DNA of 64,000 nucleotides from a virus (lineage: Duplodnaviria > Heunggongvirae > Uroviricota > Caudoviricetes): the IMG/VR virus record IMGVR_UViG_3300028797_000096, positions 77,860 to 141,859 of that record. One strand, given 5' to 3'. Shown piece after piece: positions 46,136 through 52,380 of the stretch (positions are counted from its first letter, which is position 1; each line of letters begins with the position of its first letter). The position numbers were made by a program, and so were the translations under genes. The notes beneath the pieces are model-generated. The model was given only the letters and a program-made list of their open reading frames with translations. It was not told the origin of the DNA and did no database searches.

Positions 46136-46172
46136 GGGCGAGCGCCGGAGTCGGAGAGCCGGGGCAGACTGT
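46136..46172 (+). tRNA. tRNA-Tyr(GUA) exon 1 (intron-interrupted)
   Basis: GGGCGAG acceptor, CCGG D-stem, GCAGA anticodon stem, loop CUGU|; near-identical to E. coli tRNA-Tyr core (GCAGACTGTAAATCTGC) once spliced to exon 2. Confidence 0.65.
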
Positions 46173-46352
46173 AAAAAATTGCAGCCTTATATAGTAATAT
46201 ATAAGTGAAAATTTGGCTAAGTCGGGGAAAGCTAAGTTAAATGATATGCTAATCCCGAGCTAGGAGAAATCCGAGTGTAGAGACTTTACACCAGACATCT
46301 TATTGAGATGAAGAGAAAGTCCAGACTACAATGTGAAAACAATGTAGCAATG
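46173..46352 (+). ncRNA. group I intron (about 180 nt, ORF-less) in tRNA-Tyr anticodon loop
   Basis: inserted after U35; internal guide GCAG pairs with exon end CUGU with a U-G wobble at the splice site; shares GTGTAGAGACT and AAGTCCAGACTACAA blocks with the tRNA-Leu intron; ends in G before exon 2. Confidence 0.6.
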
Positions 46353-46402
46353 AAATCTGTTGTCTTATGACTGAGTTGGTTCGACTCCAACCTCTCCCAC
46401 CA
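46353..46402 (+). tRNA. tRNA-Tyr(GUA) exon 2
   Basis: AAA-TCTGT anticodon 3' half, 14-nt variable arm, GTTGG-TTCGACT-CCAAC T-arm, CTCTCCC-A-CCA. Confidence 0.65.
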
Positions 46403-47594
46403 CAAATGAAATCCTAGAACAACTGCTATGACATCTTAGTAATGTTATCAGCTCTAGGTAAAGATACAAGGGGATGAGTTAAATTCGACAGTATATTTTT
46501 ACTGGACTCGGTTTCAATACCGATATCTCCACCATAAAGTTTGGTGATATTTAGTTTATTACGAATAGAACATTTGGTACTAGACCAAAAGAAGCATAAG
46601 GGACATTGCAATATCACCGATACAGTTTACTAAATAATTACAAAAGATTATTTAATTGACTGGCATGATAAATGAACCAGCGAACGATAACTATAAATTA
46701 AGTGCAATAGCTGCTTGATTTAAATAAAGTTATCAATCGGAGCTGGGTAGAGCTTGGCAACAGAATCTACCAAATTTATTTGCGGGCTTAGCTCAAAAAG
46801 TATAGAAAAATATTTGGCTCGTGGGAATGCATAGTGTGTTCACCTGACTGTCACTCAGGAAATCAGATGGGGGCGGTACCCATACGAGTCGCCATAAAGT
46901 TTGGGTAAGTAGTGTGAAGTATAGCACACAGCACACTGGGCTGAAGTGTTAGGGGAAGTGCCTAACCAATAATCCCACCCTCAATTTAGCTGAGACTGCA
47001 GTAGTAGGCTAAATCCCTTGACTAACGTTCCTGGTCAGAACGATCGTCACTAGTCGATAGTAGTCGGAGTTTAATGCAGGTGTGACTTCGTTAGGTTAGG
47101 CCAACTAAATTCTGCATTTTTAATGTTTATACTTATTTCGAGTGAAATAGTCTCGAATGTATTGGTGTTCGACAATACAGCTTGCTGTAACAAGTCCAAG
47201 GGAAAGAATAGGAAACCTGAAAGAGCTCTAGTAAGGTGGAATTGGAAGTATAAATGTTTACTGTTGATATACTTTTATGTATATTAATTTCGGGTTTGAT
47301 AGGCCGGTTAGCTTGTACTCTTACAAGTCAGTGATCTAAATTCCGGGTCTTACTATCATTCTCCGCTTAAATTCCTATTAGCATTAGCTAGTATGGATTG
47401 CCAGAATGTAGAAATGCATTTTTGGTTTTTGGGGTAAAGTTTCAACTACTGATTGGACACCTCAATCCGAACATCACGGAGTTCAGCTAGTGATGCTCGA
47501 CTGAACATATTTCTGGGCCTTGACCAATGGTCGAGGATTTGCCGAGGCTTTTGGTGTTATTGAGCCATCGTAGAGAATCAAAACACCTTTATAT

Positions 47595-47669
47595 TGGCGT
47601 GTAGCTCAACGGCAGAGCTTTCGGCTGTTAACCGAATGGTTGTCCGTTCGAATCGGACCACGCCAGCCA
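47595..47669 (+). tRNA. tRNA-Asn(GUU)
   Basis: TGGCGTG/CACGCCA acceptor, anticodon loop CTGTTAA, GTCCG-TTCGAAT-CGGAC T-arm, encoded CCA. Confidence 0.85.
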
Positions 47670-47676
47670 TGTTTCT

Positions 47677-47751
47677 GGCCCCATCGTCTAATGGTTAGGA
47701 CACCGCCCTTTCAAGGCGAGAATCCCGGTTCAAATCCGAGTGGGGCTGCCA
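47677..47751 (+). tRNA. tRNA-Glu(UUC)
   Basis: GGCCCCA acceptor, anticodon loop CTTTCAA, GGTTCAAATCC T-loop, CCA. Confidence 0.75.
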
Positions 47752-47757
47752 ATTTAT

Positions 47758-47831
47758 TGGAGCATAGTTTAATGGTAGAACCCGGGATTTTGGTTCCCGT
47801 TATCTTGGTCCGAATCCAGGTGCTCCAACCA
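47758..47831 (+). tRNA. tRNA-Gln(UUG)
   Basis: TGGAGCA/TGCTCCA acceptor, anticodon stem CGGGA/TCCCG, loop TTTTGGT, CCA. Confidence 0.8.
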
Positions 47832-48024
47832 TTAAGTTTTACAGAAGTGTCTACTATTAGTTACGTATGAGGCTATAAAGGTAGGAATACGTATCAAAGA
47901 CAGCCTACTAATAAGCACGAAATAATTTTGGTAAGACTTATTAGAGGAAAGTTTTTCTTTTAGCATTGGCTAGAAGTATTACCTGAAAGTTAATATGAAA
48001 AAGTTATTAGCTTTCTTGGTCTAT

Positions 48025-48101
48025 GCTTGTTTAGCTCAGTTGGCTAGAGCATCTGCTTTACACGCAGAGGGTCAGGAGTTCGAGTCTCTTAACAAGCACC
48101 A
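48025..48101 (+). tRNA. tRNA-Val(UAC)
   Basis: GCTTGTT/AACAAGC acceptor, anticodon loop TTTACAC, GGAGTTCGAGTCTC T-arm, CCA. Confidence 0.85.
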
Positions 48102-48124
48102 AAAAATTTAAAAAAAGGAAATTA

Positions 48125-48616
48125 ATGAAAGCAATTTGTCCAAAATGTGGAATAGAATTTGAAAATGATACAAATCGAAAATTTTGTTCAAGAAAATGTG
48201 TAAATAGTCGTAATATTTCACAAGAAACAAAAAAGAAAATTTCAAATAAAATGAAAGCCAGATATCAAGAACCTGAATACAGAAAACAAATTTTGAATTT
48301 AAATAGAAAATTAGGTAATCATTTACATGAAGAAAAATTAAAAAGATTTGTAAAAGCAAAAAATGGGCAAATTTTAGATATTACATATGGGGAATTAGAA
48401 GAATACCAAAAAACTCATTTGGTATGTGAAATTTGTGGTAAAACTGAAATTGCTTCACATAACATAATAAAAAAGATATATCGAAATTATGTCGTGATCA
48501 TGATCATAAAACTTCTAAATTTCGTGGATTATTATGTAGTAATTGTAACAGAAAGTTAGGTTGGTTTGAAAATTTTAAAGATGAAATTTTCAAATATTTG
48601 AATAAAAAGCACCAGT
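48125..48616 (+). pseudogene. NUMOD3 + Endonuclease-VII/HNH-type homing endonuclease with frameshift
   Basis: N-terminal NUMOD3-like SQETKKKISNKMK; frame 2 reads ...LVCEICGKTEIASHNIIKK then must shift to frame 1 (DISKLCRDHDHKTSKFRGLLCSNCNRKLGWF) at the A6 run 48468-48473 to restore the CxxC...DHDH...RGLLC..CN motif. Confidence 0.6.
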
Positions 48617-48682
48617 AGTTTAATAGTAGAATGTAACCTTGCCAAGGTTAAGACCTCGGAGCATAACCGGGTTGGTGCACCA
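48609..48682 (+). tRNA. tRNA-Gly(GCC)-like, atypical arms
   Basis: GCACCAG/TTGGTGC acceptor, perfect anticodon stem TAACC/GGTTA with loop TTGCCAA, CCA; D-arm weak and T-loop AGCATAA non-canonical; overlaps the stop of the HNH pseudogene. Confidence 0.45.
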
Positions 48683-48684
48683 AT

Positions 48685-51108: not shown

Positions 51109-51377
51109 TAAATATTAAAAGTTTTGGTCTTATAGGTCAAAGACTAAAATGACGGGGACAGCCTGAAGATAGGAGGCTGCTGCTTGGATCGGCAATATAG
51201 GGTCTCACAAAATACATAAGATTGACCTCACAGTGTTTTCACGCTGATAATCTTATGGTGAGTGTATGCAAAACCTGATTGAGTTGGTTCAAATCCAGAC
51301 AGTTAGGTAGGCAAGGTGTTGGAGCATGAACACACTTAGATGGGTTGCTCCTTATAGTTTTATAGGAAGGATATGAT

Positions 51378-51611
51378 ATGAAAGATATATGTACTGAAAT
51401 TATAAAAGAGTTAGAAAAAATGGGATATACTGCATTTCAAATAACTCCAGAGATGTCTATTCATGAAGATTTAGGTTTAGATTCATTAGATACTATTGAA
51501 TTGGTTGCTAAATTAGAAGAAAAATTTGATATTCGTATAAAAGATGATGATTTAGTAGATGTAAAAACGATTCAAGATATTGTAGATATTGCTAATAAAT
51601 ATTTAAAATGA
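51378..51611 (+). CDS. acyl carrier protein
   Basis: 77 aa acidic; phosphopantetheine attachment motif DLGLDSLDTIELVAKLEEKFDIRI. Confidence 0.8.
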   Translation: MKDICTEIIKELEKMGYTAFQITPEMSIHEDLGLDSLDTIELVAKLEEKFDIRIKDDDLVDVKTIQDIVDIANKYLK

Positions 51612-51734
51612 GAGTTTAACCGATAAAAGAAATAGTTCTATATAATATGAAAAAAATAAATGTATGTTTTTGGCCATGCTTTCCTAGTACCTTTGGAGGT
51701 AAGTGTTAATCATACTTTTATAGAAGATTAGATA

Positions 51735-51764
51735 CCTCCAGAAATAAAAAGCTGGAGGTTTTTT
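51735..51764 (+). terminator. rho-independent terminator after the ACP gene
   Basis: CCTCCAG-aaataaaaag-CTGGAGG then TTTTTT. Confidence 0.8.
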
Positions 51765-51853
51765 AATTGAGTTTGGTAGTTGTAGTATAATCAATACACT
51801 TCCCAATGGGGTAGAAGAGATGTAAGTAAAATCTTATCGATTACCACAGTTTA

Positions 51854-51931
51854 TCGGAATGTAGGATAATCTGGTTATTCCGCCTGTTTTGGGTACAGGA
51901 GACTCCCGGTTCAAATCCGGGCATTCCGACC
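51854..51931 (+). tRNA. tRNA-Pro(UGG)
   Basis: CGGAATG/CATTCCG acceptor, anticodon loop TTTGGGT, CCCGGTTCAAATCCGGG, CCA. Confidence 0.8.
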
Positions 51932-51937
51932 AGTTTT

Positions 51938-52014
51938 TGGCTGGGTAGCTCAGTTGGTAGAGCAAGGGACTGAAAATCCCTGTGTCAGTGGTTCGATCCC
52001 GCTCTCAGCCACCA
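51938..52014 (+). tRNA. tRNA-Phe(GAA)
   Basis: GCTCAGTTGGTAGAGC D-arm, anticodon loop CTGAAAA, CCA. Confidence 0.85.
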
Positions 52015-52019
52015 ATCTT

Positions 52020-52093
52020 GGCCAGGTGGCAGAATGATTATGCAGAGGACTGCAAATCCTTGTACATCGGTTTGATTCCGGTCCTGGCCTCCA
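52020..52093 (+). tRNA. tRNA-Cys(GCA)
   Basis: GGCCAGG/CCTGGCC acceptor, anticodon loop CTGCAAA, discriminator U, CCA. Confidence 0.75.
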
Positions 52094-52098
52094 AATCT

Positions 52099-52172
52099 AG
52101 GTCATTAGTTTAGTGATAAAACAAAGATCTCCAAAATCTTAGTCGGTGGTTTGATTCCATCATGACCTGCCA
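52099..52172 (+). tRNA. tRNA-Trp(CCA)
   Basis: AGGTCAT/ATGACCT acceptor, anticodon loop CTCCAAA, CCA. Confidence 0.75.
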
Positions 52173-52303
52173 TTATTTTGGAAATTTAGTTAAAAAAAGT
52201 ATTTACAAATAAAAATAAATGTATATAATATATAATATCTACTTGCTGCCATACTAGATTTCCCAGTTACCATCGTAGTAAGTACAGCAAGTAGGTAGTT
52301 TAT

Positions 52304-52380
52304 CGCGAGATAGAGCAGTCCGGTAGCTCGTCAGGCTCATAACCTGAAGGTCGTAAGTTCAAATCTTACTCTCGCAACCA
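52304..52380 (+). tRNA. initiator tRNA-fMet(CAU)
   Basis: near-identical to E. coli tRNA-fMet (TGGAGCAG..GGTAGCTCGTC.GGCTCATAACC.GAAGGTCGT..GTTCAAATC); C1/A72 mismatch (CGCGAGA...TCTCGCA-A-CCA) characteristic of initiators. Confidence 0.85.

Follow-up and report, generated by a model that had tools for sequence, protein, structure and literature searches.

What does a phage gain from an island in which genes for transfer RNAs (tRNAs), group I introns and endonuclease genes lie mixed together, and what else is encoded there? The island in question occupies positions 46136-52380 (~6 kb) of a 64,000-nt stretch of phage DNA from IMG/VR record IMGVR_UViG_3300028797_000096 (hereafter the window, to which all positions refer), and its genes all share one orientation, on the + strand. 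With considerable confidence, we consider that the region as a whole is best explained as a stable-RNA gene cluster of this phage; its contents include two tRNA genes interrupted by related group I introns and two modules of a candidate transfer-messenger RNA (tmRNA).

Judged from its sequence, the DNA comes from a large phage of the rumen or gut that has not been cultured; its capsid protein is of the Gp23 type, with no more than 34% identity to any record, and the window is AT-rich (G+C 29.6%). No close relative was present among deposited phage genomes, which gave only tRNA-sized matches. Related contigs, which span 200-245 kb, were gathered through a conserved 141-aa protein of the island (L003-L015) or through a tmRNA pseudoknot pattern (L017-L030 and L032); most of them are metagenome contigs. 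One, from buffalo rumen (L032, JAFZWP010000001.1, 245 kb), is labelled 'MAG: Bacilli bacterium' and probably represents a jumbo-phage genome placed in a bacterial bin.

The tRNA genes and their two introns

At default settings, the tRNA calls of ARAGORN in the whole 64-kb window numbered 14, and all of them fell between 47595 and 52380 on the + strand. Rfam at its gathering threshold recovered the same 14 and added tRNA-Gly (48609-48679, 49.2 bits), these 15 genes reaching 49.2-73.3 bits against the RF00005 threshold of 29; ARAGORN called tRNA-Gly at relaxed settings only, and its L007 orthologue at default. The tRNA-Met has the C1:A72 mismatch found in initiators. Two further genes, tRNA-Tyr and tRNA-Leu, were called by default ARAGORN once spliced in silico, as tRNA-Tyr(gta) of 87 nt and tRNA-Leu(taa) of 89 nt, bringing the total to 17. 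An Asp-like cloverleaf at 46816-46894, with atypical D- and T-loops and a 97% identical copy in L030, would be the eighteenth; it did not pass as a tRNA, having no Rfam match at E<=10 and no default ARAGORN call.

A preliminary description of this DNA had listed 17 tRNA or tRNA-like genes within the same outer limits, together with two group I introns. All 17 genes and both introns were recovered, with the Leu anticodon corrected to UAA by the spliced ARAGORN call and the Asp-like cloverleaf added as an element that the list had missed. Recovery of far fewer genes by automated finders had been named as what would undo the claim; such finders returned 14-15 of the 17 and the introns explain the other two, which leaves it standing.

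Both introns exceed the 50-bit threshold of RF00028, that of tRNA-Tyr with 64.8 bits (46162-46345) and that of tRNA-Leu with 65.1 bits (49397-49609), and they are related to each other (nhmmer). They were invisible to whole-window Rfam scans because of speed filters and were recovered on small pieces. The exon and intron limits in tRNA-Tyr were set by aligning 46130-46410 to the intron-less tRNA-Tyr of three related contigs: the 5' exon end, ..CUGU/A (the slash marks the splice site), can pair with a GCAG guide located a few bases inside the intron, leaving at the splice site the U:G pair that is typical of group I introns, while the intron ends ..AAUG ahead of a 3' exon that starts with AAAUCUGU. 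The 5' exon of tRNA-Leu ends ..GACUU/A with a GAGU guide downstream, and the intron, ending ..UAAG before a 3' exon that begins AAAAUCUGU, lies between U34 and A35 of the anticodon UAA, with its ribozyme core (~49466-49628) 3' of an HNH open reading frame (ORF). The features of the group I class were found, namely a 5' exon U with a guide G, a terminal G and, for tRNA-Tyr, exact absence in intron-less alleles, and both introns are predicted to self-splice. The two host genes (46136-46402 and 48890-49682) have a common anticodon stem, GCAGA/UCUGU. The 4:69 pair of tRNA-Tyr is non-Watson-Crick, and is kept so in relatives.

The anticodons of the island match the codons that dominate in the window: TTA, 66% of Leu codons, pairs with Leu(UAA), the dominant codons GTA, GCA, ACA, CCA, GAA and CAA all have matching anticodons, and AGT, the most used Ser codon, is read by tRNA-Ser(ACU). 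The latter, with its wobble A, is kept in three phages (window 48784-48873; L007 7881-7970; L014 6850-6941). We infer that the 17-18 tRNAs supply phage translation, matching its dominant A/U-ending codons, whether the host's own tRNAs fit poorly or are lost to host defences, and by analogy the set may also buffer the phage against host nucleases that attack tRNAs. Such a supply purpose fits the presence, ~9 kb upstream of the island (35240-37441), of a gene for a 733-aa fusion of kinase, phosphoesterase and T4 Rnl1-type RNA ligase, an enzyme of the tRNA-repair type. By analogy with the T4 tRNA cluster, the genes would be transcribed as long precursors from which host tRNA-processing enzymes cut out the individual RNAs, and the simplest reading of the island is that of a translation-support module.

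One intron family and its endonucleases among related phages

Members of the same intron family were found at position 35/36 of tRNA-Tyr (window, L022), at 35/36 of tRNA-Asn(GUU) (L027), at 34/35 of tRNA-Leu(UAA), either with an HNH ORF (window and L014, whose copy is 86% identical to that of the window) or without an ORF (L030), and at 26/27 of tRNA-Leu(UAA) in L007 (2703-2904, 202 nt, Rfam 60.9 bits against 50). Of these sites, 26/27 falls outside the anticodon loop, at the junction of D-arm and anticodon stem, and the joined exons of the L007 gene (2677-2966) form a normal tRNA-Leu(taa); spliced products were likewise called as normal tRNAs in the window, L027 and L030. Intron-less tRNA-Tyr alleles are carried by L003, L011, L014 and L032, in the last case at the same locus with near-identical flanks and downstream sequence, and no intron-less Leu(UAA) allele was recovered among the relatives. 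The 5' exon ends are alike across the intron sites (AGACUGU, AGACUU, GGACUGU, AGACGCU), which would fit occasional ectopic insertion guided by the short guide sequence of the intron.

The ORF carried by the tRNA-Leu intron lies entirely within it, and its HNH motif was recognised through phrog_10822, the Pfam HNH score (18.9 bits) being below the cut-off of 21.4. The free-standing HNH gene is frameshifted: the reading frame of the ORF 48125-48559 (144 aa) is broken by a run of A residues at ~48466-48478, the other frame goes on with KLCRDHDHKTSKFRGLLCSNCN.. to a stop at 48618, and the 3' end of the gene overlaps the start of tRNA-Gly. The joined 164-aa product reaches 43.1 bits with Pfam Endonuclease_7 versus 23.6, in a match that spans the shift, and it also matches several phage endonuclease-VII families. 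Because the truncated 144-aa product is recorded on three contigs (whose assemblies may not be independent), the frameshift is probably not a one-off assembly error.

Four further types of endonuclease gene lie among the tRNAs of the relatives (PD-(D/E)XK, GIY-YIG and two HNH_3-like ORFs). A PD-(D/E)XK gene (PF11645, 64 bits) is found directly upstream of the intron-less tRNA-Tyr of L032, and a SegE-like GIY-YIG gene abuts tRNA-Tyr in L014; L007 has an HNH_3 gene among its tRNAs as well as a free-standing HNH_3-like ORF (3047-3607; 19.2 bits, below the cut-off of 24.8) just 3' of its ORF-less Leu intron. Taken with the distribution of the intron family, these genes make the mobile-element hotspot a property of the whole lineage. 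The preliminary description had proposed such a hotspot, with one intronic HNH gene and one free-standing and frameshifted, and had suggested a synteny comparison for alleles with and without introns; the hotspot and both genes were confirmed, and the comparison did yield intron-less tRNA-Tyr genes.

In the mechanism that we propose, small group I introns of one family would colonise the cluster, each excising itself from its pre-tRNA, and the exons would re-form a normal anticodon arm, so that the interruption costs little. At the DNA level, introns would be spread by the intronic HNH endonuclease or by nearby free-standing endonucleases, with occasional jumps to new sites preceded by AGAC..U (Tyr 35/36, Asn 35/36, Leu 34/35 and Leu 26/27).

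Bacterial tRNA group I introns are known at 33/34, 34/35, 35/36 and 36/37 (PMC13011429), and two groups of them invite comparison. The tRNA-Leu intron of the window resembles the classical cyanobacterial and plastid one in its tRNA, anticodon, U34/A35 site and group I architecture (PMC13011429); the classical intron has no ORF and belongs to subgroup IC3, whereas that of the window carries an HNH gene, resides in a phage and has family members at other sites. The introns of Patescibacteria are also similar, being small, located at 35/36 of tRNA-Tyr(GUA) and tRNA-Asn(GUU), in some cases equipped with HNH genes and missed by standard finders; they are, however, bacterial, chromosomal and 184-894 nt long, compared with 180 nt for the Tyr intron of the window (PMC13011429). 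The 26/27 site of L007 is absent from the Patescibacteria intron survey (mSystems 2026, PMC13011429). According to a 2014 review, every phage group I intron then known sat in a protein-coding gene (PMC3984707), and our literature searches, which covered open-access text, found no later report of an intron in a phage tRNA gene.

The tRNA-like and message-like modules

Downstream of tRNA-Tyr lie a tRNA-like domain (TLD) and an mRNA-like piece (MLD), each with the features of one part of a tmRNA. The TLD (46470-46534) reads GGGGAUGAGUUAAAUUCGAC-(hairpin)-GGACUCGGUUUCAAUACCGAUAUCUCCACCA and consists of a complete acceptor stem of 7 bp that contains the alanine identity pair G3:U70, a D-analogue (..AUUCGAC, containing the ..UUCGAC looked for in tmRNAs), a T-arm and an ACCA end; all the tmRNA features sought in it were thus present. 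Helix P2 is closed, by a 5-bp mini-hairpin in the window and by 5-8 bp with a loop of 3-9 nt across loci. With RF00023, the TLD of the window scored 26.0 bits (E 1.8e-9) and that of L007 49.5 bits (threshold 47). The MLD begins 90 nt past the TLD and comprises, in order, H1 (46631-46654), a CUGG..CCAG stem, the tag, a stop hairpin and a pseudoknot. Its tag frame (46680-46718: GCG AAC GAU AAC UAU AAA UUA AGU GCA AUA GCU GCU UGA) encodes ANDNYKLSAIAA followed by a stop codon that lies within the hairpin, and an H-type pseudoknot (46740-46771) forms the 3' end; alpha_tmRNA (RF01849) matched tag and pseudoknot with 36.4 bits (E 1.7e-8, threshold 50).

The TLD is followed by the MLD at 13 loci on 12 distinct contigs, leaving out loci that contig ends had shortened to the message part alone. 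The two are fused at the CCA (..CAUCUCCACCAGUUUAC..) in L024, L027, L029 and L030, and elsewhere separated by an insert of 90 nt (window, L026, L032), of ~120 nt with a tRNA-like module (L021), of ~300-360 nt (L007, L017, L022) or of ~550 nt including a 130-aa ORF (L014, L019). The 90-nt insert of the window (46535-46624) has a fold much more stable than those of shuffled controls (z = -3.4), and copies of it occur in L026 (100% identity) and L007 (98.8%). In L032, the order of tRNA-Tyr, hairpin, TLD, insert and MLD is that of the window. The tRNA-like module found between TLD and MLD in L021 and L028, called 'tRNA-Stop' by relaxed ARAGORN, has the anticodon UUA; it is a possible ochre suppressor, and hints at stop-codon recoding in some relatives. 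A fused TLD-MLD query had no match among 50,697 phage records, and IMG/VR returned no relatives when queried with an upstream UDG-like protein or with exact TLD patterns, and one truncated locus with the tag pattern.

Covariation was assessed on 10 distinct sequences, with inserts removed, a hand-drawn structure and controls in which pairing partners were slid. In this alignment, 99.3% of cells were paired versus 24-48% with slid partners, and eight pairs, in P2, the T-stem and H1, showed compensatory changes, versus 0-1 in the slid controls; G3:U70 was invariant in 10/10 sequences. Changes in the tag were mostly synonymous (Ile ATA/ATT/ATC, Ala GCA/GCT/GCC, Ser AGT/AGC, Leu TTA/TTG, stop TGA/TAA), with few and conservative replacements (K/R, S/V/G, N/S), so that the peptide is probably under selection. 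An in-frame AUG five codons 5' of the tag is kept in most copies and lost in L024, L029 and L026, which argues against ordinary initiation, although an in-frame UUG is kept.

These data bear on the view that both the interrupted tRNAs and the pieces of tmRNA are in decay, as pseudogenes that selfish elements have damaged or as fragments of host ssrA, function resting on the 15 uninterrupted tRNAs. One endonuclease gene is indeed frameshifted, some tRNA-like genes are non-canonical and default finders skip the interrupted genes. Decay is nevertheless hard to reconcile with intron cores that exceed the Rfam threshold and keep intact splice-site features, with conserved exons of normal tRNA fold, with the absence of any second Tyr or Leu tRNA gene in the window by ARAGORN although TTA is the commonest Leu codon, and with tmRNA modules that are conserved, covarying and synonymously changed on 12 distinct contigs, and we hold it to be very improbable.

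The layout departs from the tmRNA architectures that were considered as candidates. In standard tmRNAs, P2 leads out to the message. A standard one-piece tmRNA was rejected, as the tag frame lies 3' of the CCA and P2 is closed, leaving the message outside the P2 loop. A permuted tmRNA (RF04321, relaxed ARAGORN 'tmRNAp*') was rejected as well: the GGGACAU that it takes as 5' strand is unable to pair with the 3' strand of the acceptor stem and lacks conservation in L014 and L017, RF04321 reached 22.9-25.6 bits (threshold 47), and 3' of the CCA there is no conserved GGGG acceptor strand, the region 5' of CAGUUUAC differing between loci. Permuted two-piece tmRNAs, as found in Alphaproteobacteria, some Betaproteobacteria, Cyanobacteria and marine phages, resemble the present case in that two RNAs are expected from a cut by tRNA enzymes, and the tag (ANDNY...) and following pseudoknot of the window are similar to those of the alpha-type coding piece; permuted genes occur in phages such as Melnitz (PMC9004378). 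However, permuted genes place the 3' half first and let the 5' half head the coding piece, with pairing through the acceptor stem and P2, whereas in the window the two halves adjoin each other, P2 closes as a hairpin and the coding piece is devoid of an acceptor strand. The TLD-only tmRNAs (mycobacteriophage DS6A, Mallomonadaceae plastids and jakobid mitochondrial forms) share a TLD of ~65 nt with an empty P2 loop (PMC4131195, PMC11915505), but have no tag frame, while the window has a conserved tag piece 3' of the CCA. A 2025 census of ~97,000 tmRNA sequences distinguished standard, intron, permuted, permuted-no-CDS and standard-no-CDS forms (CDS, coding sequence; PMC11915505). By its sequence features, the detached-message layout matches none of these five catalogued gene forms, the nearest being the TLD-only gene of DS6A.

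That inserts of varying length are tolerated at the junction implies a separate mature RNA for each of the two parts. Where the genes are fused, the CCA doubles as the first strand of the MLD basal helix (CCAGU/ACUGG), and cleavage after the discriminator with re-addition of CCA would yield both complete RNAs from one precursor. Processing at the CCA would thus release an alanine-type TLD, of 65 nt and ending in CCA, and a detached tag piece, i.e. a separate MLD RNA of ~150 nt starting CCAGUUUA or GUUUA; both would take part in ribosome rescue together with the SmpB and alanyl-tRNA synthetase of the host. The weakest part of our account, which we advance tentatively from the conserved sequence features, is that TLD and MLD may act jointly in this rescue, the tag piece being recruited without a tether.

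Several points weigh against the account given here, the whole of which has sequence as its basis. The Rfam scores of the MLD are below threshold (34.7-40.2 bits against 50), and a search of the window and of the retrieved loci gave no homologue of SmpB, so that the system would depend on that of the host. To our knowledge, known tmRNAs are all tethered, covalently or by base pairing, and the only contact found on co-folding TLD and MLD was CCA:UGG, a pairing that cannot be maintained while the TLD is charged. Upstream of the tag lies a conserved in-frame UUG, and translation of a mini-ORF is possible. As for the rest of the island, the Asp-like and Gly tRNAs, whose elbows are atypical, may be non-functional, and the frameshift in the free-standing HNH gene could reflect a true pseudogene or programmed slippage. 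Two other candidates for a contact between the modules were set aside: a pairing of the TLD D-loop with the stop region of the MLD (UUARAU-AUYUAA), in which all combinations pair with one informative change, is not claimed, and kissing loops or a strand swap between P2 and H1 were not kept across loci.

The missing tether would also suit a TLD that acts alone, in the way proposed for DS6A, either titrating host SmpB and thereby blocking trans-translation in the host or rescuing ribosomes without tagging, with the MLD as a separate small ORF or a regulatory RNA derived from a tmRNA message. DS6A provides a precedent for a TLD-only gene, and in E. coli a molecule of this kind is an inhibitor of tmRNA (PMC4131195, PMC11915505); the inserts between the parts vary and include an ORF and a tRNA-like module, and a possible start codon is at hand in the conserved UUG, and in most copies in the AUG. 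We nevertheless regard this reading as rather doubtful, since the MLD lies always just 3' of the TLD where upstream sequence suffices and keeps the hallmarks of a tmRNA (a GCG/GUG resume-type codon after the stem, a tag ending in AA, a stop in a hairpin, a pseudoknot), no Shine-Dalgarno-like sequence is present and the AUG is lost at three loci.

The modules might instead be rejoined or held together after transcription, through ligation by the phage RNA ligase, circular permutation or a bridging protein, to give an ordinary tethered tmRNA. The kinase/phosphatase/Rnl1-type ligase fusion would provide the enzyme, and permuted tRNA and tmRNA genes elsewhere are matured by unusual processing (PMC11915505); with no sequence signals and no conserved complementarity past CCA:UGG, rejoining is a matter of pure inference, and improbable.

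The remaining features and the significance of the cluster

Further non-coding modules and a few protein genes occupy the rest of the island (Table 1). The preliminary description had noted several ORF-free structured patches; these are real, richer in G+C than the coding background and conserved as discrete modules in relatives. One of them is the candidate tmRNA, which the description had missed. A hairpin motif precedes the TLD, and its second copy (50761-50808) shows compensatory changes in the outer and inner stems. Many copies, with the core UUGCUAUGA..UUAGUA..UUAUCA, are present in L007, L014, L016, L017, L022, L023, L026 and L030, and the motif is often located just 5' of RNA genes. 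Six modules between 46908 and 47594 (62-176 nt) recur in relatives in different arrangements with 82.5-98.5% identity, several being better conserved than the tRNAs (70-96%) and the 141-aa protein (53-89%). None matched an Rfam family, and this pattern fits small stable RNA genes or recent endonuclease-driven exchange. Folded as one RNA, 46895-47300 was not unusually stable (z = -1.2), and a four-sequence alignment of it showed weak covariation.

The 141-aa protein gave a low-confidence, winged-helix-like model; it was considered as a candidate SmpB and rejected as not SmpB-like. An acyl carrier protein (ACP) gene, already reported among the small protein genes in the preliminary description, was supported by a PP-binding match and follows a conserved structured leader that could be a regulatory RNA. 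The leader shows compensatory changes in L007 and L010, and similar copies occur in L019 and L021; the 'tRNA-His(atg)' that ARAGORN placed inside it at relaxed settings (51222-51307) is spurious. The best promoter-like site of the island (52202-52229; TTTACA, 16 nt, TATAAT) lies 5' of tRNA-Met, with a 10-bp hairpin leader between it and the initiator tRNA (within 52202-52303); the promoter/terminator scan was not above shuffled expectation (40 versus 31.7 +/- 6.2). Rfam S774 and other sub-threshold matches in the island were treated as chance. A peptide deformylase gene (43132-43614) is found a few kb upstream of the island.

Table 1. Features of the island, with window positions, strand and supporting evidence.
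Feature	Position	Strand	Evidence
tRNA-Tyr(GUA), 5' exon, ends ..CUGU (U35)	46136-46172	+	alignment to intron-less alleles
Group I intron at tRNA-Tyr 35/36, 180 nt, no ORF	46173-46352	+	RF00028; intron-less alleles
tRNA-Tyr, 3' exon, CCA encoded	46353-46402	+	alignment; spliced ARAGORN call
Conserved hairpin motif CCUAG..UUGCUAUGACAUCUUAGUAAUGUUAUCA..CUAGG, 46 nt	46413-46458	+	copies in relatives
TLD of candidate tmRNA, 65 nt	46470-46534	+	RF00023; covariation
Inserted module between TLD and MLD, 90 nt	46535-46624	+	absent from L024, L027, L029, L030
MLD of candidate tmRNA	46625-46771	+	Rfam alpha_tmRNA; recurrence with TLD
tRNA-Asp(GUC)-like cloverleaf, GCCA end	46816-46894	+	relaxed ARAGORN; minimum-free-energy cloverleaf
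Six non-coding modules	46908-46980, 46984-47120, 47123-47298, 47299-47372, 47449-47510, 47516-47594	+	relatives
tRNA-Asn(GUU)	47595-47669	+	ARAGORN, Rfam
tRNA-Glu(UUC)	47677-47751	+	ARAGORN, Rfam
tRNA-Gln(UUG)	47758-47831	+	ARAGORN, Rfam
tRNA-Val(UAC)	48025-48101	+	ARAGORN, Rfam
Free-standing endonuclease-VII-type HNH gene, frameshifted	48125-48618	+	Pfam, phrog
tRNA-Gly(GCC), T-loop AGCAUAA	48609-48682	+	Rfam, relaxed ARAGORN
tRNA-Ser(UGA)	48685-48774	+	ARAGORN, Rfam
tRNA-Ser(ACU)	48784-48873	+	ARAGORN, Rfam
tRNA-Leu(UAA), 5' exon, ends ..GACUU (U34)	48890-48924	+	spliced ARAGORN call
Group I intron at tRNA-Leu 34/35, 704 nt, with HNH ORF	48925-49628	+	RF00028
Intronic HNH endonuclease ORF	48989-49465	+	phrog_10822, E 3.6e-20
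tRNA-Leu(UAA), 3' exon, CCA encoded	49629-49682	+	spliced ARAGORN call
tRNA-Ala(UGC)	49695-49770	+	ARAGORN, Rfam
tRNA-Ile(GAU)	49772-49848	+	ARAGORN, Rfam
tRNA-Thr(UGU)	49857-49932	+	ARAGORN, Rfam
Conserved non-coding modules	49937-50028, 50070-50160	+	copies in relatives
Conserved 141-aa island protein	50322-50747	+	relatives
Conserved structured leader of ACP gene, ~270 nt	51109-51377	+	relatives
ACP gene	51378-51611	+	PP-binding, 50.5 bits
tRNA-Pro(UGG), tRNA-Phe(GAA), tRNA-Cys(GCA), tRNA-Trp(CCA)	51855-52172	+	ARAGORN, Rfam
tRNA-Met(CAU), initiator-type	52304-52380	+	ARAGORN

Clusters of tRNA genes in phages are well known, as is the presence of homing endonucleases within such clusters. 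The island is like the T4/T6 cluster in combining co-oriented tRNAs with small stable RNAs of unknown function and a free-standing homing endonuclease gene, and differs from the T4 cluster, which has eight tRNAs without introns, by its 17-18 tRNAs, two of them with introns, and its tmRNA-like modules. The endonucleases of the window are of the HNH type, versus the GIY-YIG type of T4/T6 SegB, which is met again in the SegE-like gene of L014. In T6, SegB amplifies a tRNA-Tyr segment and thereby allows escape from the Septu defence, as shown experimentally (PMC13096335). It is the introns in phage tRNA genes and the tmRNA layout that look new. That both an untethered two-RNA trans-translation and group I introns able to colonise tRNA genes outside the anticodon loop are at work here is, as a combined claim, open to serious doubt.

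A single intron family moving among tRNA-Tyr, tRNA-Asn and tRNA-Leu, with alleles that carry or lack the intron, provides a natural system for following the invasion of essential RNA genes. If both tmRNA modules cooperate, the need for a tether between message and TLD becomes directly testable; the tether thought essential for loading of the resume codon would then be dispensable, or replaced by a protein or by concentration. Moreover, standard annotation misses two tRNAs and the tmRNA of this island, and the translation content of large gut and rumen phages is thus probably under-counted.

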